Positions 21,174 to 37,814 of a DNA stretch of 64,000 bases are shown here, in pieces. Under the pieces are notes generated by a model. The model saw only the letters and a program-made list of their open reading frames with translations. It was not told the DNA's origin and did not search any database. How positions within the stretch are numbered: position 1 is the stretch's first letter; every line of letters begins with the position of its first letter. A program made the translations under genes and the position numbers. The stretch is from Candidatus Enterousia sp. GTDB taxonomy: Bacteria; Pseudomonadota; Alphaproteobacteria; Rs-D84. The DNA is taken from assembly GCA_045616625.1 (NCBI GenBank), contig JAZLHA010000013.1, positions 4,201 to 68,200 of the forward strand, read 5' to 3'.

Positions 21174-22001
21174 ATGTCGTTGGATTTAACAATGGATGTG
21201 CCAATTACAGATATAGCACTATTAATAGATTTATTACGACCAAGTCAGTGGGAAACTATACTTGCAGCAACAATCCCCGCATATTTTTCTATGTTCGGCA
21301 CCTTTTATTTATATCGTCGAGAAAGGAAAGATAAACTTAAAGATGCCAAACAAACAAAAGATGATGAACAAATACAAGATTTAAATATATTATTAGCAAA
21401 TTTGTTTCAATGTATAGAAAATCAAAAAGATAATCTCAATGAAATTATTGAATATAAAAAGGAAACGGAACAAACATTTAAAGAAAGACAGATTTTTGCT
21501 TTTAAAGATGATGTCAATATTGAAGATGTATTAAGAATTGCTAATAAAATAATTGTTGATCTGCCTGAAGTGAGTTATGATTTAAATAGATTAAAAAATG
21601 ATTTATATTGGGCAAAAAGATACAGGGATTCAAGAGATGAATATTCACATAAATACGGCTATGATTTTTTTAAGGAACGATTAGATAGAGAAGAAGAACA
21701 AGAAATTATGATTATAAAGCGACTTATAGCAATATGCTTGGTATTGTATGACTATGCAACATCGTTATACCCCAAAAAACGAATATTAAAGATCACAGCT
21801 AAAGCCCATGTATCAACTATTTGGAAGTATTTAATCATTGATAAAACCTTTAATGAGACAGTGGTTTTTTCTAGATTACAATACGAATTTAAGAATCCAG
21901 CTATAAAAGATTGGTTTTTTATCAGGTTAAAAAATCAATATATAATGGATACAAAAGATAAGGAACATATTGAGGAAATAAAACAAACTTTGAAGAATTA
22001 A
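21174..22001 (+). CDS. Hypothetical protein with an N-terminal TM segment
   Basis: 275 aa, RBS AAAAGGAAA, no recognisable motif. Confidence 0.5.
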   Translation: MSLDLTMDVPITDIALLIDLLRPSQWETILAATIPAYFSMFGTFYLYRRERKDKLKDAKQTKDDEQIQDLNILLANLFQCIENQKDNLNEIIEYKKETEQTFKERQIFAFKDDVNIEDVLRIANKIIVDLPEVSYDLNRLKNDLYWAKRYRDSRDEYSHKYGYDFFKERLDREEEQEIMIIKRLIAICLVLYDYATSLYPKKRILKITAKAHVSTIWKYLIIDKTFNETVVFSRLQYEFKNPAIKDWFFIRLKNQYIMDTKDKEHIEEIKQTLKN

Positions 22002-23620
22002 GCATTTTCAAAAAACTGTTTTTGCTTTTCCAAATATCCTGTCTTTGATGCTTTGTCTAAGATATCTCTAACAGCCATATTGGCTTTGCCACTTAGTAAT
22101 CGGTTTATAATTTTCGGACTAAGATAGGCTAATGCCAAATATTTATAGAACAATCGTGGTGATGTGTGTAACTTTGCTATGATTTCATCAACGCTACCAT
22201 CCTGTTCGTATAACTCTCTGTATTTCCAAGCGGTGGCAAATGCTTTGACTATTAAGTGGTTATTGTCGGTAATGCTTAGTACACCATTTTTGCCGTGGTC
22301 ATATACTGTATTAACATATTTACGCAGGAATACTTTTTCTGTAATCGTTATACTGTTGGTGCCTATGATATATTCCATTTGTTTGGCATTTTGATTCACA
22401 TAGTTTGTTGATACAAAGGATTGTAGTTTTTGTGCATCTGTGGTAATCGTGTAAATTAATTGTTCTTGCGAATATACAACCTTTTCAATCAAAGATTGAA
22501 TAAAACTTCGCTTTTGTGCGTATGACATGTGTTCTATATCAATGCGTTTTAATGTTGTGGCAATATCAACTGGCAGGGCAGACATATCGCTATCCAGAAA
22601 ATCTGTTATGGTTTTGACCACAATTTCATCCACGCGTGCAGCAGTCAGATAAAATCCTTTGGTTGCATAATAATGAATTTTCTTTTTACCTTTACCACTG
22701 GTCATTTGGTTTATGAATTTAGTGCCATTATGATTAAACAATTTTCCCGTCAGTATATTCGGCGCACGTGTACTTGGTGATTTATTATTCGCATTATTAG
22801 CCAACGCAACTTGTACGCGATTAAATAACTCTTCGGGGACAATTGGTTCATGTTCCCCTTTAGCAAATGTGCCTTCTGTTTTGTTTTCTATCATGCCGAT
22901 ATATATTTTATCACGCAGAATCCTGTGCATGCTCATTTTGGCTATTGGACGTCCACCCATGATGTTGCCTTTGGCGGTTGTCCACTTTTTAGCGTTTATA
23001 CCATTTTGATTTGCGTATTCTGTTAAATCGTTCACAGATTGTAATTCCAAATACTTTTCAAACAGATGGCGAACTTGTTCCGCTTCGGTTGAATTTACTA
23101 CTAATTTCTTATTTATAACATCATAACCCAATCGTGGGGTTCCACCGACCCACAACCCTTTGGCTTTTGATGCACGGATTTTATCACGCACACGTTCACT
23201 TGATACTTCGCGTTCAAACTGTGCAAACGACAACAGCATATTCAATGTTAATTTACCCATGGATGTACTGGTATCAAACGATTGGGTAATTGATACAAAA
23301 TTAGCACCATATTTTTCAAAGTATTTCATCATGTTATGAAAGTCTAAGATTGAACGGGATAATCGATCAACCTTATACACCACGACGGTATTAACCAGTC
23401 CATGTGCCATGTCGTCTAGCATTTGCTTTAATGCAGGTCGTTCCATGGTTCCACCAGATATCGCCACATCACTGTATGTTTTATAATATTGCCATCCGTT
23501 GAACGATTGTGATGCAATATATGCTTTGCAGGACTCTTCCTGATTTTGCAGGGAATTAAATTCTTGGTCCAGTCCGTGTTCGGTTGACTTACGGGTATAA
23601 ATAGCGCATTTAATTGTCAT
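21998..23620 (-). CDS. Large serine recombinase (resolvase/invertase N-domain plus recombinase and zinc-ribbon-like C-region)
   Basis: 540 aa. It has AIYTRKSTEHGLDQEFNSLQNQ (catalytic Ser region), YSDVAISGGTMERPALKQML and VVVYKVDRLSRS. Confidence 0.85.
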   Translation of the reverse strand: MTIKCAIYTRKSTEHGLDQEFNSLQNQEESCKAYIASQSFNGWQYYKTYSDVAISGGTMERPALKQMLDDMAHGLVNTVVVYKVDRLSRSILDFHNMMKYFEKYGANFVSITQSFDTSTSMGKLTLNMLLSFAQFEREVSSERVRDKIRASKAKGLWVGGTPRLGYDVINKKLVVNSTEAEQVRHLFEKYLELQSVNDLTEYANQNGINAKKWTTAKGNIMGGRPIAKMSMHRILRDKIYIGMIENKTEGTFAKGEHEPIVPEELFNRVQVALANNANNKSPSTRAPNILTGKLFNHNGTKFINQMTSGKGKKKIHYYATKGFYLTAARVDEIVVKTITDFLDSDMSALPVDIATTLKRIDIEHMSYAQKRSFIQSLIEKVVYSQEQLIYTITTDAQKLQSFVSTNYVNQNAKQMEYIIGTNSITITEKVFLRKYVNTVYDHGKNGVLSITDNNHLIVKAFATAWKYRELYEQDGSVDEIIAKLHTSPRLFYKYLALAYLSPKIINRLLSGKANMAVRDILDKASKTGYLEKQKQFFENA

Positions 23621-24050
23621 GTTTGATTCCTTTGTCTAAGCCAAAGAACTTTGGACCAGAAACCTTCATGCCTGCTATCTGATGGGCAACCGCCGATAAT
23701 GTGGGGTATGTCTGACCATTGTAATAAAATGTTCCGTTATCATTGACCATAATTCGGTGTTCGATCCCCCGAAATGTTCTGGTTATAACGGTGCCAGGTG
23801 AAATACAGTATTTACGCTGATAAACACGAGTGTCGCATTCTGATGGATTGTCTTTGTATTTCTTAATTTTTGCCAGATATTTATGCTCTATGCGCAGATT
23901 TAGACGGTCACATTGCACATAGTACCACAATGACCGCATTTGGCGTTTAAATGGGTGTGGCGAGTATTTTGCCCACAATCGCGCCCGTTCATCGAAAGAC
24001 AGTGTCTGTAGTTCTTTCAACGTCTTTGGCAGTTTATCTTTGTACGACAT
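23610..24050 (-). CDS. DUF2924-like protein (typical partner of large serine recombinases)
   Basis: PGTVITRTFRGIEHRIMVNDNGTFYYNGQTYPTLSAVAHQIAGMKVSGPKFFGL matches the DUF2924 C-terminal pattern as I recall it. The start was moved to M9, which is preceded by AAGGAG. The gene overlaps the recombinase start. Confidence 0.65.
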   Translation of the reverse strand: MSYKDKLPKTLKELQTLSFDERARLWAKYSPHPFKRQMRSLWYYVQCDRLNLRIEHKYLAKIKKYKDNPSECDTRVYQRKYCISPGTVITRTFRGIEHRIMVNDNGTFYYNGQTYPTLSAVAHQIAGMKVSGPKFFGLDKGIKHDN

Positions 24051-24171
24051 ATCAACTCCTTTAATGTCGTCCAATTACCGCTCTAAAACCACCAGAAGTC
24101 AAGTTAAAATAAGTTGATAATTTGATTTTTATTTGGTATATATATACCCAGGTAAATAAAGGATATTCATT

Positions 24172-31689: not shown

Positions 31690-33132
31690 ATGGCGACTTT
31701 GGATTTAGATCATCATAAAAATTATGAATGGGTAGGCACTTTTTGGATGCCAAATAAACCAGGTAAGGAATTTTCTGGAAAATTGAGTTATTCTCCAGAA
31801 ACAGGGATTCAAATCTCGGTGTTTAATACAGATGTAAAACCACTTGTTAATAAATCTTTACGTATAATACATGGTATAATTCGTCATGGAGAAGAAACCA
31901 TACCGATTACATTATTTGAAGTGTTTTTACAACGTTCTGGAATGAGTATACATCTCGTCTTGTCAGAATTTGTTACAGGATCTGCTAGAGTAATTGTTTT
32001 TGGTGATTTACTAAAAAATTTTATAATAAGTGGCTTATATATAGACTATGATGACAATTTCTATCAATTTTTGTCCACAAATAAAAACATTAGTTCTATG
32101 GTGACATTTACACAAATACCAGTTGTAATAGGTAAAACACAAATTTCGCTTGAAATAGTGAATGCAACAGCTCACACCATTTATTCCGCTGATGATTTTG
32201 ATGATATCATTTGTTCTTTTTCTGCAGAATCTAATAATATTATGAATTCATTTAAAAAGCATATACAACCATTCTTAGATGAAAACAAATATAATTTATT
32301 AAAACGTCTCCACACGAATATCGCTATTCATATAAAGTCAGGTTATAACAAATTCTCTATTTATAGAATGCTTGAACATAAGTTGCGGTTGTTTTTAGAA
32401 TTTTTAGTGGATTGTAAGATAGGTATAAATTTTAGCTGGATTGATGTTGTGAAACACGACAGGAATGACAAAATATATCACAAAGCATATCCCATGCTTT
32501 GCAAGGATTTTGCTTATTCTTCTGTGCATAATCATAAAAAATTATCACATGTTTTTATGCCAATAACCATAAGGGATTTTGTAATAAATAAAGATAATAA
32601 TTTGTTAAATGCATCACTCAACAGATGGTTAAGTGTCTATGACGAACCAGGTTGGCATAATTTGATTACAGGAATTGAAGATATCTTGAACGAACATCGG
32701 TCGGTAATTAGTCAAAAAGATTATGTAATGTTGATTTCTTACATAGAAACTTTACAAAACTTACGAGGAAAACCTAAAAACAATGACATAGATGGTTTTG
32801 TTTCAGAAAATTTATCAACATCATGGAAAACAAAAATAAAACGCATATTAAAATATTCCCAAAAACAAGATAAAAATCTGGGCAACGCTTTGTGCGAAAT
32901 ACGCAACGTAATAGTTCACCCAAAATCGCATAAGAAAAATAACGGTAAATATTATGCAATCGCAAATAATGAATTAGCATTGCAAAATGTTTATGGTATA
33001 TTAGCCGGTGCATTTATAAATGGTTTAATGAATGACATATATTCTATACCTAAGGAAATAATTACTAAACATATCAATATGTTTATTCAAACACATTCTT
33101 CTTATAAATATATAAGATATAAAAAAGCTTAG
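31690..33132 (+). CDS. ApeA-like HEPN-domain protein (candidate abortive-infection effector)
   Basis: 480 aa. The N-terminus WVGTFWMPNKPGKEFSGKLSYSPETGIQISVF resembles the ApeA N-terminal domain. An Rx4H HEPN motif is present in LCEIRNVIVHPKS. It lies 11 nt after the REase gene. Confidence 0.5.
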   Translation: MATLDLDHHKNYEWVGTFWMPNKPGKEFSGKLSYSPETGIQISVFNTDVKPLVNKSLRIIHGIIRHGEETIPITLFEVFLQRSGMSIHLVLSEFVTGSARVIVFGDLLKNFIISGLYIDYDDNFYQFLSTNKNISSMVTFTQIPVVIGKTQISLEIVNATAHTIYSADDFDDIICSFSAESNNIMNSFKKHIQPFLDENKYNLLKRLHTNIAIHIKSGYNKFSIYRMLEHKLRLFLEFLVDCKIGINFSWIDVVKHDRNDKIYHKAYPMLCKDFAYSSVHNHKKLSHVFMPITIRDFVINKDNNLLNASLNRWLSVYDEPGWHNLITGIEDILNEHRSVISQKDYVMLISYIETLQNLRGKPKNNDIDGFVSENLSTSWKTKIKRILKYSQKQDKNLGNALCEIRNVIVHPKSHKKNNGKYYAIANNELALQNVYGILAGAFINGLMNDIYSIPKEIITKHINMFIQTHSSYKYIRYKKA

Positions 33133-33224: not shown

Positions 33225-33791
33225 TTATTTATCCGCTTGTTTCGCTCTTTTAATATTGTTATATGCTTGATAAACCCTAGCGATTCTATAAATATTTATG
33301 ATAGTAGCCAAACATAAAAGTAAAGCATACGCAAAAATTAATGTTGATATACCAGAAAATATCATTATCCCATATGTGGGCATTATGTTTATCACAGTTT
33401 TTCCTATAAGAGCCAAAAACAAAGACAGTAATTGTATTATTATAAAGTGTACAAAAGCTGCATTTGCTTGCATATACAATGTTTCTGTTGTCTGGTTTTT
33501 CCTTCTTTGTGAAATTAATCTTCTGAAATCGTCTTCTCCAAAAGTTGATAGCAATGTATAGGCGGCCAAAGAAAAACCCAATAACGCAGGAATAATCGTT
33601 TTAACATTATCGATCCAGGAACAATTATTTATCCATTCACCACACATAAAAATGGTCAAAAAAATAGAAAAAATAAAATAAAAAGAAGAAAATATCTTAG
33701 AAAATCCACCATATCCATCAGTATAAATATCTTTTAAAATATCAAAAATATTTTCTGTATTTTTTTTATGTATAGATAAAAATTTTTTCAT
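33225..33791 (-). CDS. Four-TM membrane protein
   Basis: 188 aa with four hydrophobic segments. Its start overlaps the stop of the upstream 289-aa gene. Confidence 0.6.
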   Translation of the reverse strand: MKKFLSIHKKNTENIFDILKDIYTDGYGGFSKIFSSFYFIFSIFLTIFMCGEWINNCSWIDNVKTIIPALLGFSLAAYTLLSTFGEDDFRRLISQRRKNQTTETLYMQANAAFVHFIIIQLLSLFLALIGKTVINIMPTYGIMIFSGISTLIFAYALLLCLATIINIYRIARVYQAYNNIKRAKQADK

Positions 33792-34660
33792 CAGTTTGCT
33801 CTAATTTTTCTTAAAAATTCTTTAAGAACATTATCAATGCCCGATTCTGGATCAGAATCAAAAAACTCCATGCAAGGATGTTCTCTTGTGGAATCCGTCA
33901 TTGTTTGACCATTTTTGTTTATTGCCCTAACAGAAACTAAGCCATTTGTACTTGCTATCCGTGCAATAATTTTCGTATCTGCACTTATGGTTAAACCGTT
34001 TTCATTCGCGGCTGTATAGTTAATTTCTTCTGCTTTTGCATTCATATTGTTAAGTCTGTCCATTATCTCTCTTTCTGAATCTGCCAGGTCATCTGGATTT
34101 GGAGGTGTTATTTTTATTTCCAATTTTTTTATAATTGGATTGGCTAATAATACATCTAGTACGTTAGATTCTGGAACCAAAGTCACATCCACTTGGCCAT
34201 AATTTTGGAACAGCACATCATTATTAAGGATGTTACTAAATAAATTTTTTATATTTTTAGGCCCAAAACTTTCTTGTTTTTTATTTTTCATTTCAAAGTA
34301 CAGTTTATGGCTGGCAGTGTCAAATATAAAGTGGCATGTAGTCAAGTTAGGGCGTAAACACTCTGGTATTTTAATTTCGTTTTTTTCATAGCCCTCGGCT
34401 TCATCAAGTTTCTCAAGATTAAGCCAAGGTTTATCTTTGTCTATTGTTGAGAAAATATACAACGCGCCTATTAAAGCATTTTGTATATCGTCTAATGGGA
34501 GCAGCTTGCCGATAATACCGCGTTTTTCTCCATAATATTTTGAATCTAGTCCTCTTTTTCCATTCTGAAAAGCCGCGTTAAATAGATCGCAATACATTTG
34601 TGGCGAATGTGGTTGTGTGGTGATGTTTAAAATCCCAAATATATTTTTTCGTAATTTCAC
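33791..34660 (-). CDS. Hypothetical soluble protein (possibly DUF4747-like), partner of the 4-TM protein
   Basis: 289 aa. The N-terminus FGILNITTQPHSPQMYCDLFNAAF is reminiscent of DUF4747, from memory only. Confidence 0.5.
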   Translation of the reverse strand: MKLRKNIFGILNITTQPHSPQMYCDLFNAAFQNGKRGLDSKYYGEKRGIIGKLLPLDDIQNALIGALYIFSTIDKDKPWLNLEKLDEAEGYEKNEIKIPECLRPNLTTCHFIFDTASHKLYFEMKNKKQESFGPKNIKNLFSNILNNDVLFQNYGQVDVTLVPESNVLDVLLANPIIKKLEIKITPPNPDDLADSEREIMDRLNNMNAKAEEINYTAANENGLTISADTKIIARIASTNGLVSVRAINKNGQTMTDSTREHPCMEFFDSDPESGIDNVLKEFLRKIRAN

Positions 34661-34842
34661 AGTAAGTACCTTTATGAATTTTTCAACTATATGACTTAAA
34701 CTTGCCCATAATATACCACTTTAGCATTATTTTCATATAAGTCAATTTATCTGTAAATATATTTATATTATTAGATATGCTTTCGTTCGTAACAAAATTG
34801 AAATGCGTATTTTGACTTATTAAAAAAGTTACTTATTTGATT

Positions 34843-36015
34843 TTAAAACTTATTCTTAAATGATTCTAATGCATTTAAGAATGCTTCGCGTTTTGATGTG
34901 ATAATATTTTCATCCAAGAAATAAAACACATCCAGTTTGTCATATGGTTTTGATTTAGAACGTGGAGTATGTTTGATGAATGGTTTTAAGTCAGCGAATA
35001 GCGAATTTGCCATTAATTCGGAATATCCGCGTCGCTTTAATGCGTTCATAATTTTGATTGGTACAAACCAATTATCTTTAAAACTGATGTTTATTAATGG
35101 TGCTATGTTAGGCAAATGGATAATTATACTTTTTTCACCATAATTGATATAAAAACCTAAATTTCTTATAGCATCCATAAAGTTGCTGATTTGTTCTGCG
35201 TCAGTGTTAGGATGTGATTTAATGTAGTTTTTAATAAATTCTTCGTCTGTCTGCAATTTTTTGTTATGTGTATTTACAGGGTTTGACAGTTCTTCTTCTG
35301 TGTTTTCTACTTTGATAGATCCATCTTCAATACTGATAACACCACGTGTAACAACTTTGGTGTGTGCAGTTAAATGCGGAATAACAATTTTTGATGTTCC
35401 AAGTTTATATATTTCTAATTCGCAGAGGGCTATATTGTGGTGCATATCAATCATATTACTGGTGCTTTCTAGTAATTCTTCGACATTTTCACGAATTCCA
35501 TCACCAACAATCATTAATAAAAAGCGAGATTTATGAATGTTCTTTGTTAGGGTATCCACAAATTCTATTTCGTCGGTATTATCTTTGTGACCTGCAGCAA
35601 CAAGTGCATCAAATAAATTAGTTTTTGTTTTGTGATATTCTTTATATGCACGATTTACGTTTTCATAATCCCATGTTTTGATAGCCTTAGCATATTCAAT
35701 GATTTGTCCGACAACTGCACGTCTGGCTTCTGGGTTAGACCAAAGTTTTGTTTCAACTATGACTAAATGTCCATTTGGGGTCACATATAGATTATCAATC
35801 CTGCCGTTTGGTGTCATGATTTCACGACCGATTAAAAACAATGGGGAATAAGTGGGGTCAACATCACCAGTGGGTAAAATTGATGGGTTTTTTGCTAATA
35901 AATCTTGCAGCCATTTTTCTTTTATTGTTTCAGATGATAGTAATACTCGATTTAATTTTTCATATTTGTTGGATTTATCAATTAATACTGGCGTTTTAGC
36001 TGCACGGTTTGACAT
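34843..36015 (-). CDS. PD-(D/E)xK (NucS/DUF91-like) nuclease-family protein
   Basis: The ORF was trimmed to MSNRAAK..., preceded by AAGGGGG. The motif KWLQDLLAKNPSILP...GRIDNLYVTPNGHLVIVETKLW...GQIIEYAKAI is a D...E-x-K nuclease core with the usual flanking pattern. Confidence 0.6.
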   Translation of the reverse strand: MSNRAAKTPVLIDKSNKYEKLNRVLLSSETIKEKWLQDLLAKNPSILPTGDVDPTYSPLFLIGREIMTPNGRIDNLYVTPNGHLVIVETKLWSNPEARRAVVGQIIEYAKAIKTWDYENVNRAYKEYHKTKTNLFDALVAAGHKDNTDEIEFVDTLTKNIHKSRFLLMIVGDGIRENVEELLESTSNMIDMHHNIALCELEIYKLGTSKIVIPHLTAHTKVVTRGVISIEDGSIKVENTEEELSNPVNTHNKKLQTDEEFIKNYIKSHPNTDAEQISNFMDAIRNLGFYINYGEKSIIIHLPNIAPLINISFKDNWFVPIKIMNALKRRGYSELMANSLFADLKPFIKHTPRSKSKPYDKLDVFYFLDENIITSKREAFLNALESFKNKF

Positions 36016-36040
36016 GTTTACCCCCTTGTTGTTGTTAGTC

Positions 36041-36065
36041 AAAAACCACCAAGATAAATTGGTGG
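36041..36065 (-). terminator. Intrinsic-terminator-like hairpin between the structured leader and the RBS of the nuclease gene
   Basis: The minus strand reads CCACC-AAUUUAUCUU-GGUGG followed by UUUUU. The RBS AAGGGGG and the ATG follow within about 25 nt. Confidence 0.55.
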
Positions 36066-36220
36066 CTGGAGGTTAGTTACTATACGAAGAATAGTGTGGC
36101 TTATTTAGCAAATGCCTTATTCACCGACCCTCCAACCATAAGGCTGCAGGGCTATTAACGTCAGCGCTGACGCTTCGTAAGAGGTAACTACACCTCAATA
36201 TCGGAATTCCCGATATCAGT
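36066..36220 (-). ncRNA. Candidate structured RNA / riboswitch-like 5' leader (unclassified)
   Basis: Nested helices were read by eye: 36069-36080/36184-36196 (12 bp, 1 bulge), 36083-36089/36173-36179, 36090-36094/36152-36156, hairpin 36114-36120/36138-36144 (17-nt loop), hairpin 36159-36172 and hairpin 36198-36216. A hand count gives about 74 G+C in 160 nt, in an AT-rich context. Confidence 0.5.
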
Positions 36221-36518: not shown

Positions 36519-37814
36519 ATGGACATTGAAAACATAAACCCAAAATATATTAAACCGTATGCAAAAAATACCCGCATACATAAAGATAAACACATACAAC
36601 AGATAATAAATTCTATACGTGAATTTAGTTTTACCAATCCGTTGTTGATTGATGAAAATAATATTTTGTTGGCTGGTCATGGGCGACTGCTGGCGGCCAA
36701 TAAATTAGGTATGGAAAGTGTGCCTTGTGTTCGTATAACGCATTTAACTGATGCACAAAAACGGGCATACCGTATTGCAGATAATAAATTGACGATAAAT
36801 GGTGATTGGGATCAAGATTTACTTAGTTTAGAATTTAAAGATTTAGCAGAATTGGGTGTAGATTTTGATTTAGATGTTACAGGATTTGACTTGGCAGATA
36901 TAGATGTGTTGATTCAATCACAGAATGACGAATTATTAGAACATGATAGCGCCGATGATATGCCAGACATCCCTGAGGGTAAAATAGTATCCCGTGATGG
37001 CGACTTGTGGCAGTTAGGGGATCATATTATATTATGTGGTAATGCACTGATAGAAGACAATTTTAAGAAACTTATGGCAGAAAATCGAGCAAGGATGGTT
37101 TTTACTGATCCACCATATAATGTACATATTGATGGACATGTTTGTGGCAGTGGGAATATTCACCATGATGAATTTGCAATGGCATCTGGTGAAATGACCA
37201 GACAAGAGTTCAAAGATTTTTTACGGACTGCATTTACCTTGTTGCGTAATTATTCTGTCGAAGGTTCTTTGCATTATTTATGTATGGATTGGCGACATAT
37301 AATAGAAATTACCACTGCTTGTGACGAAACCTATACAGAGATGAAAAATTTGTGCGTTTGGAATAAGTCATCTGGTGGTATGGGGTCGCTATACCGGTCA
37401 AAGCATGAACTGATATTTATATATAAACATGGCACTGCGCCGCACATTAATAATATTGAATTAGGGGTACATGGACGTAATCGAACAAATGTTTGGGATT
37501 ACCCTGGTGTAAACACTGGTAATCGCGAAGAATTGCTTTTACATCCGACCGTAAAAAACGTTCAAATGGTTGCTGATGCAATAATGGATGTGACTAATCG
37601 TGGTGACATTGTTTTAGATTCATTTTTAGGATCTGGAACAACTTTATTGGCATGTGAAAGGACTGGACGCATATGTCGAGGAATTGAGATTGAACCCAAG
37701 TATATAAACACAACAATTCGCCGTTGGCAAAAAGTCACTGGCAAGGATGCAGTACTTGTGCAATCTGGTAAAACTTTTAATGAAATATACAAATTAAATC
37801 AAGAGGTGGCGTAA
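36519..37814 (+). CDS. ParB-like nuclease domain fused to a DNA methyltransferase (phage/plasmid type)
   Basis: The N-terminus has IKPYAKNTRIHKDKHIQQIINSIREFSFTNPLLID...LAGHGRLLAA (ParB/Srx fold). The MTase motifs are FTDPPYN and HPTVKNVQMVADAI...LDSFLGSGTT. Confidence 0.8.
   Translation: MDIENINPKYIKPYAKNTRIHKDKHIQQIINSIREFSFTNPLLIDENNILLAGHGRLLAANKLGMESVPCVRITHLTDAQKRAYRIADNKLTINGDWDQDLLSLEFKDLAELGVDFDLDVTGFDLADIDVLIQSQNDELLEHDSADDMPDIPEGKIVSRDGDLWQLGDHIILCGNALIEDNFKKLMAENRARMVFTDPPYNVHIDGHVCGSGNIHHDEFAMASGEMTRQEFKDFLRTAFTLLRNYSVEGSLHYLCMDWRHIIEITTACDETYTEMKNLCVWNKSSGGMGSLYRSKHELIFIYKHGTAPHINNIELGVHGRNRTNVWDYPGVNTGNREELLLHPTVKNVQMVADAIMDVTNRGDIVLDSFLGSGTTLLACERTGRICRGIEIEPKYINTTIRRWQKVTGKDAVLVQSGKTFNEIYKLNQEVA

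Follow-up and report, generated by a model that had tools for sequence, protein, structure and literature searches.

The stretch of DNA analyzed here, referred to as the window, comprises 64,000 nucleotides (nt) of contig JAZLHA010000013.1 from Candidatus Enterousia sp., and derives from a gut metagenome-assembled genome (MAG) of ~0.81 Mb. Within the window lie two adjacent genes, termed A and B, which are the subject of this report. A preliminary description, made from the sequence alone, proposed that the two form a candidate defence or abortive-infection module composed of a 289-amino-acid (aa) soluble protein and a 188-aa protein with four transmembrane (TM) segments. The overlap of the two genes at position 33791 is confirmed by their open reading frames (ORFs) and by the sequence, as is the composition of the pair by hydropathy analysis and by an AlphaFold2 (AF2) model of B. 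The genes are also placed, as had been stated, between an ApeA-like gene and a nuclease gene. The core of the proposal gains support from the membership of A in Pfam family DUF4747, from the conservation of the pair as a unit and from its genomic context, and our analysis suggests that the pair is a module of the RexAB type.

At the junction of the two genes, the sequence reads AAC-TGA-TG-AAA, with base 33791 common to the stop codon of A and the start codon of B. This one-base overlap suggests that A and B are translationally coupled. A Shine-Dalgarno-like AAGG is located 8 nt 5' of the GTG codon of gene A. The GTG start is correct because homologues of A align from residue 1 on; the conserved block LNIT..PH occupies residues 11-18. 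When compared with the homologues at locus L015, A exhibits 75% aa identity and B exhibits 73%, with ratios of nonsynonymous to synonymous substitution rates (dN/dS) of ~0.08 and ~0.14, respectively. Both genes are therefore under purifying selection, and both ORFs are real genes.

The AT-rich spacer 5' of A (Table 1) includes promoter-like pairs of sigma-70 hexamers at 34795-34767, 34757-34729, 34745-34718 (with TG) and 34736-34708. The number of sites found in a promoter and terminator scan is not above the expectation from shuffled sequences, and for this reason we can only infer the boundaries of the A-B operon. The spacer probably carries the operon's own promoter.

Table 1. Coordinates of the gene pair and of associated features in the window
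Feature	Position	Strand or orientation	Description	Basis
Gene A	33791..34660	minus	289 aa, GTG start, soluble DUF4747 protein	ORF list, Pfam
Gene B	33225..33791	minus	188 aa, ATG start, four-TM protein	ORF list, hydropathy, AF2
TGATG	33789..33793	minus	stop/start overlap of A and B	read from sequence
Spacer	34661..34842	minus	AT-rich, 182 nt, 5' of A	sequence and promoter scan
ApeA_NTD1 protein gene	31690-33132	convergent to A-B		Pfam/PADLOC scans
PDC-S11/NucS-like nuclease gene	34843-36042	minus	upstream of A	Pfam/PADLOC scans
Large serine recombinase and DUF2924 genes	21998-24074		beside tRNA-Ser	

The soluble and membrane proteins

Protein A matches the DUF4747 model (PF15931) with an E-value of 2e-60 and a score of 204.8 bits against a cut-off of 27, over model positions 1-253 of 257, and the match is repeated in a whole-genome Pfam scan. 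This agrees with the preliminary judgment that the soluble protein is more like DUF4747 than DUF4868. DUF4747 is the only Pfam family matched at E ≤ 0.01; neither RexA (PF15969) nor RdgC is detected at this threshold. A also matches phrog_10040 (E = 1e-63), and a Kyte-Doolittle scan identifies no hydrophobic segments in it.

AF2 modelling of A from 32 homologues gave a model with a predicted local distance difference test (pLDDT) score of 93.3 and a predicted template modelling (pTM) score of 0.88. When this model was searched against the PDB with Foldseek, lambda RexA (8TWQ, entry 8twq_B) ranked first, with a full-length alignment (E = 1.9e-5, probability 1.00), followed by Escherichia coli RdgC (2OWL/2OWY, E = 7e-5) and then by the kinetochore proteins CENP-N and CENP-L. 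The same circle of proteins, RdgC and Chl4/Iml3, was described as the relatives of RexA by Adams et al. (NAR 2024, PMC11077077), and RdgC and RexA share a common fold and nonspecific DNA binding (PMC11077077). Thus, the statement in the preliminary description that neither protein has a motif tied to a function must be revised for A, whose modelled fold would connect it with the DNA-binding proteins RexA and RdgC. It is likely, but not proven, that A has a two-domain RexA/RdgC-like fold.

A fold search against models of viral proteins matched A to uncharacterized siphovirus proteins of the gut virome (E = 1e-15, TM-score 0.67), and RdgC-like "recombination-associated" proteins were matched as well. 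At the level of sequence, phmmer and profile searches of PDB sequences with A and B returned chance matches only.

The sole stretch that hhalign aligns between the DUF4747 profile and RexA corresponds to A residues 242-250 (window ~33913-33939), with a nonsignificant probability of 0.1%. In this stretch, V-S-V-R-A-I-N-K-N of A lies opposite I-S-L-R-A-K-D-E of RexA, and the RexA portion includes R219 and K221, mutation of which abolishes DNA binding. The weak alignment is a hint for mutagenesis of A, not evidence.

Protein B has no match to any Pfam, NCBIfam or PADLOC model, and a meaningful Pfam match is found for none of 85 members of its family. It matches phrog_20580 (E = 1e-23). An exhaustive HMMER scan recovered at least 782 cluster representatives of the B family at E ≤ 1e-3, 386 of which reach E ≤ 1e-10, and family members are nearly all 170-230 aa long.

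A Kyte-Doolittle scan reveals four hydrophobic helices in B, which coincide with the helices of the AF2 model (residues 31-48, 58-83, 105-136 and 139-187; pLDDT 86.2, pTM 0.80). The model further includes an N-terminal amphipathic helix, and both the central loop and the C-terminal tail are basic. Lysine and arginine residues number 6 at the N-terminus, 5 in the central loop and 6 at the C-terminus, and the two short loops have 0 and 1; this distribution therefore argues for an N-in/C-in topology. B is thus predicted to be a four-TM inner-membrane protein whose central loop is cytoplasmic. Residues Y27-G28-G29, S36, G72-F73, H115-F116, Q120 and Y155 are invariant in an alignment of 17 sequences. 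A fold search of B against viral models returned nothing at E ≤ 0.001; its weak fold matches include a protein of the metagenomic phage ctylc9, which also provides a match for A.

Conservation and genomic setting of the pair

A homologue of B is found directly 3' of the A homologue, on the same strand, in all ~20 distinct loci examined, which come from several phyla. Examined for this purpose were the loci with enough downstream DNA (L003-L006, L008-L012, L015-L035 and a plasmid of Acinetobacter lwoffii). The two genes overlap by as much as 8 nt or are separated by as much as 45 nt. The downstream genes were recognized as B homologues by phmmer (1e-14 to 1e-87) or, for the A. lwoffii plasmid, by hhalign (E = 1.3e-40). 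Hosts of the records bearing the pair include Gammaproteobacteria, Acidobacteria, Desulfovibrionaceae, Acinetobacter and Stenotrophomonas. The assumption of the preliminary description that A and B belong together as a unit is borne out by these loci, and the defence context that it noted in the window recurs in homologous pairs, which reside in prophages and in defence or mobile islands.

The distribution of the pair was evaluated in an even set of 401 genomes from the phylum of the window, plus 14 control genomes. DUF4747 is present in 6 of the 401, and strong matches to the B profile occur in exactly 5 of these 6, always adjoining the DUF4747 gene. Divergent pairs with this architecture are present in the sixth DUF4747 genome (L007) and in L043 and L044, two further genomes whose B matches are weak; two of these three soluble partners are DUF4747 proteins. 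The pair family is found in none of the 14 controls, nor in G314, a genome of the same genus as the window.

The divergent pairs are located at L007:659-2169, L044:83-1944 and L043:1483-2894. In L007 and L044, the soluble partner matches DUF4747 weakly (1e-17 and 3e-15) and starts with ...YYN(I/V)QLLP..., and the membrane partner has the motif FP(S/N)LLGFGIGV. The soluble partner in L043 has no Pfam match, and its stop codon is overlapped by the gene for a 183-aa TM protein. The pair superfamily is broader than PF15931.

Two other records may represent pairs that are being lost or have been lost. In genome G215 (loci L005 and L008, G215:C3:155342-156786), the DUF4747 gene looks broken, with a split Pfam match and with one TGA and two TAG codons inside, and the B gene downstream is undamaged and matches the B profile with E = 4e-61. 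This pair may be a decaying copy. In an "Alphaproteobacteria bacterium" MAG from roe-deer jejunum, only a 30-codon stretch that is 57% identical to the N-terminus of A is present (L014:6001-6090), with no B; this may be all that is left of a former pair.

Many homologous pairs are associated with prophages. One resides within a Mu-like prophage, flanked by the tail region and the early region. Another, at L028/L029, lies directly behind an HTH_3 repressor gene at the end of another Mu-like prophage, an arrangement that mirrors cI-rexA-rexB of lambda. One pair adjoins the integrase of a Stenotrophomonas prophage, and one is situated between the end of a P2-like prophage and SIR2_2, pP_pnuc and AAA_15/21 genes. 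The family is thus seen in prophages and metagenomic viruses and not among the isolate phage collection, given that a tblastn search of 50,697 phage genomes with A produced no match.

Pairs are also present in integrase islands with a type I restriction-modification system or an AIPR gene, beside WYL, UDG and DnaB_C genes in one case, and elsewhere with ArdC or Bro-N genes nearby. Some occupy chromosomal sites with only an insertion sequence (IS) element nearby. The A. lwoffii type strain carries an 11.7-kb mobilizable (MOBQ) plasmid (L045, NZ_CP118966.1 9696-11240) with a DUF4747 gene and a gene for a 209-aa B homologue, adjoining a RelE/ParE-NadS toxin-antitoxin pair. From this plasmid, a bona fide DUF4747/B pair can be obtained in culture for experiments.

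In the window, the pair belongs to a ~19-kb island (~21.0-39.85 kb) that starts beside tRNA-Ser with the large serine recombinase and DUF2924 genes. Other defence-type genes flanking the pair encode a Dam-like methyltransferase (MTase), a beta-class MTase and a small PD-(D/E)XK protein (M-M-R module), as well as a ParB-MTase. No phage structural genes are found in the island. In G314, genes for DUF1015 and choloylglycine hydrolase are adjacent (G314:C2:58826-61253), and in the window these genes are 26 kb apart (13600-39900). The DNA between them in the window consists of a core block from GlyRS to tRNA-Ser, which matches G314 contig C4, and the island. The window GlyRS groups with proteins labelled "Alphaproteobacteria bacterium". 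A genome of ~0.8 Mb still carries a multi-system defence island.

A related mobile element is present at G314:C3:68800-90500 and lacks the DUF4747/B pair. Its nucleotide identity to the window is 71% in the recombinase gene (23038-24042), 79% in the nuclease leader (36035-36217) and 67% in the ParB-MTase gene (37134-37788). The same element backbone carries different defence cargo in the window and in G314, and the pair is therefore variable cargo of a mobile island.

Proposed function and alternative explanations

Because A has a RexA-like predicted fold, because the soluble gene precedes the four-TM gene, and because the two are strictly paired and reside in prophages and defence islands, we propose that A and B form a RexAB-type two-gene phage-exclusion or abortive-infection module that travels on a mobile island as cargo. 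We assign this reading a probability of about 0.72. DNA binding by A, contact between A and B, membrane damage or pore formation, and a defence phenotype would be expected by analogy with characterized Rex-like systems.

If the proposal is correct, A would be a cytoplasmic protein of the RexA/RdgC fold, probably a dimeric DNA clamp without sequence specificity, and presumably the sensor or activator of the module. It might respond to a sign of infection, for instance intermediates of phage replication or recombination, or a complex of a phage protein with DNA. A would then act on B, the presumed effector, with the stoichiometry of the two proteins fixed by translational coupling. B probably would oligomerize into a pore or channel in the inner membrane. 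The resulting depolarization or permeability of the membrane would lead to loss of ATP and arrest of growth, such that the phage cycle is not completed.

Several observations weigh against this proposal. The global TM-scores of A determined by Foldseek are low (0.22-0.24 with RexA and 0.33 with RdgC). RexA, a two-domain protein with a hinge, was crystallized in a closed state, and such values could result from this; a hinge difference between the two domains is plausibly the cause of the low score of A against RexA. Fold matches of B are weak, with a best E-value of 0.039, and a 165-aa protein of mycobacteriophage Sbash (gp31, judged by its length) matches B with E = 0.38 and a TM-score of 0.36-0.40. 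BLASTP and hhalign comparisons of A and B with RexA, RexB and CarolAnn gp44/gp43 reveal no relation, and are weak tests based on single sequences or 4-sequence alignments. The link of A-B to RexA is therefore structural and architectural only, and not one of sequence. In addition, no PADLOC v2 model matches A or B, and no repressor gene adjoins the pair in the window. In the literature found, neither the A-B pair nor any protein described as a bona fide member of PF15931 is the subject of an experiment. Finally, Adams et al. (PMC11077077) caution that Rex exclusion may be a by-product of other functions.

In a different explanation, the pair mainly serves its mobile element. A could modulate a lysogeny/lysis or excision switch as RexA does, with B as its membrane-bound antagonist, or the pair could be an addiction module ensuring that the island is kept. 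In lambda, the CI-Cro switch is biased by RexA without any need for RexB, which acts as an antagonist of RexA (PMC11077077). The homologous pairs that lie directly behind a prophage repressor or beside integrases, and the plasmid-borne pair next to RelE/ParE, fit such a role. However, there is no repressor/Cro pair by A-B in the window, its island is devoid of phage structural genes, and some pairs occupy chromosomal sites with only an IS element nearby. Moreover, a switch function alone would not account for why A is so strictly coupled to a membrane protein. We therefore consider a role mainly in service of the mobile element unlikely. A housekeeping role, for example as a membrane-tethered RdgC-like recombination regulator, might be suggested by the fact that RdgC is the second-best structural match of A and exceeds RexA in TM-score (0.33 versus 0.22). 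However, A resembles RdgC in fold with no match in sequence, including no match to the Pfam RdgC model. RdgC itself is encoded by a single gene that is conserved on the chromosome, and it lacks a membrane partner. The sporadic distribution of the pair (6 of 401 genomes, no control and no same-genus genome) and the location of nearly all copies on mobile elements are typical of accessory defence cargo, which makes a housekeeping function highly improbable.

Two further possibilities expand or replace the proposed composition of the system. The neighbouring PDC-S11/NucS-like nuclease could be a third component, given that the closest locus, L015, also has a nuclease homologue by its pair (L015:11811-13061, 40% identity, E = 1e-105). 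There, however, the gene is downstream of B, behind a 380-nt spacer that may contain a leader RNA similar in kind to that of the window, whereas the window nuclease gene is upstream of A. The nuclease is also far more diverged than A and B, and PADLOC catalogues PDC-S11 as a single-gene candidate. An all-against-all comparison of the genes adjoining B in eight loci found only the nuclease in common, and only between the window and L015, so that no other locus has a nuclease homologue or another conserved third gene. A three-gene system is accordingly quite improbable, and the nuclease gene is treated as a separate cassette. A more speculative proposal is that DUF4747/B pairs are an independent, widespread Rex-like branch whose effector family is unrelated to RexB and has its own intrahelical polar residues (H115, Q120 and Y155), and that the pair cooperates in this lineage with a nuclease gated by its leader RNA. 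Phage DNA flagged by A would then be a target of the nuclease, with B as a suicide fail-safe. We regard this combination as quite improbable. The preliminary description had instead compared the pair with an inverted Kiwa system. Kiwa is likewise a two-gene system with a small polytopic membrane protein and a soluble protein of ~300 aa, a superficial similarity, but it consists of a four-TM KwaA followed by the DUF4868 protein KwaB. Neither A nor B matches a PADLOC Kiwa model, the family of A is DUF4747 and not DUF4868, and the fold search leads to RexA and RdgC. The soluble gene is first, opposite to the order in Kiwa and identical to that of rexA-rexB, so nothing is inverted. The Kiwa comparison was rejected on these grounds, and its probability is close to negligible.

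Comparison with known systems

RexAB was the first abortive-infection system to be described, and its mechanism is still unsettled. The proposed RexAB-type reading of A-B rests in part on a common plan. In both pairs, a soluble gene (RexA, 279 aa; A, 289 aa) is followed in the operon by a four-TM gene (RexB, 144 aa; B, 188 aa), with a stop/start overlap between them. The cI-rexA-rexB arrangement is matched by the homologous loci L028/L029 but not by the window pair, which has neither an adjacent repressor nor an intact prophage. RexA (PF15969) and A (PF15931) belong to different Pfam families without detectable sequence similarity, and lambda RexA itself matches PF15969 only. Similarly, B shows no similarity to RexB (PF15968), with an hhalign probability below 1% whether RexB alone or an alignment of RexB sequences is the target. 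It also differs from RexB in its greater length and its N-terminal amphipathic helix. In size and diversity, the DUF4747 branch far exceeds the RexA Pfam family, as the size of the B family indicates. A search with lambda RexA retrieved only 19 phage records, 15 of which are at least 99% identical to lambda RexA.

Soluble proteins with four-TM partners are also encoded by the actinobacteriophages Sbash (gp30/gp31, PMC6426596), CarolAnn (gp44/gp43, PMC6426606) and Butters (gp30/gp31, PMC7542560). These systems are lysogenically expressed and have been shown by experiment to confer heterotypic phage defence. In the Sbash four-TM protein, inactivating substitutions map to the central cytoplasmic loop (PMC6426596). 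The soluble partners are 370-372 aa in length, ~80 aa longer than A. The published relation of RexA, gp44 and gp30 to DUF4747 rests on weak HHpred matches, and whereas A is a strong member of the family, the actinobacteriophage proteins are marginal. CarolAnn gp44 and gp43 match no Pfam family even at E ≤ 10, and hhalign of the A family with gp44 and of the B family with gp43 gives probabilities of ~0.1%.

The pair is of a known kind, since a "DUF4747/CarolAnn prophage system" has been counted among known or predicted immune operons under capK-capS control, at 17 of 443 capK-capS loci, by bioinformatic association (EMBO J 2026, PMC13373217). Those operons share the Pfam family of A, but the window pair has no capK or capS upstream. 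What is modestly new is that DUF4747 has its obligate partner in one single family of membrane proteins, for which Pfam has no model, that a true DUF4747 protein yields a confident model predicted to be of the RexA type, and that a DUF4747/B pair is present in a gut bacterium with a reduced genome. Annotation pipelines that use the Pfam and PADLOC v2 libraries leave B unnamed, as neither has a model for its family.

The best functional model for the window pair may be RexABpp (PP_5643/PP_5644) of Pseudomonas putida prophage P1. Both of its genes are required for defence, and RexApp binds DNA (PMC12894663). Over-expression of RexApp triggers membrane permeabilization that depends on RexBpp (PMC12894663). 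As with A-B, and as judged from its published description, the RexA-like fold of the soluble protein was found by structure or HHpred only, and the four-TM partner is without a detectable homologue. The DUF4747 branch, with its high-confidence models and a strictly coupled partner whose invariant residues can be mutated, offers a comparative handle on how a RexA-fold sensor communicates with a membrane effector.

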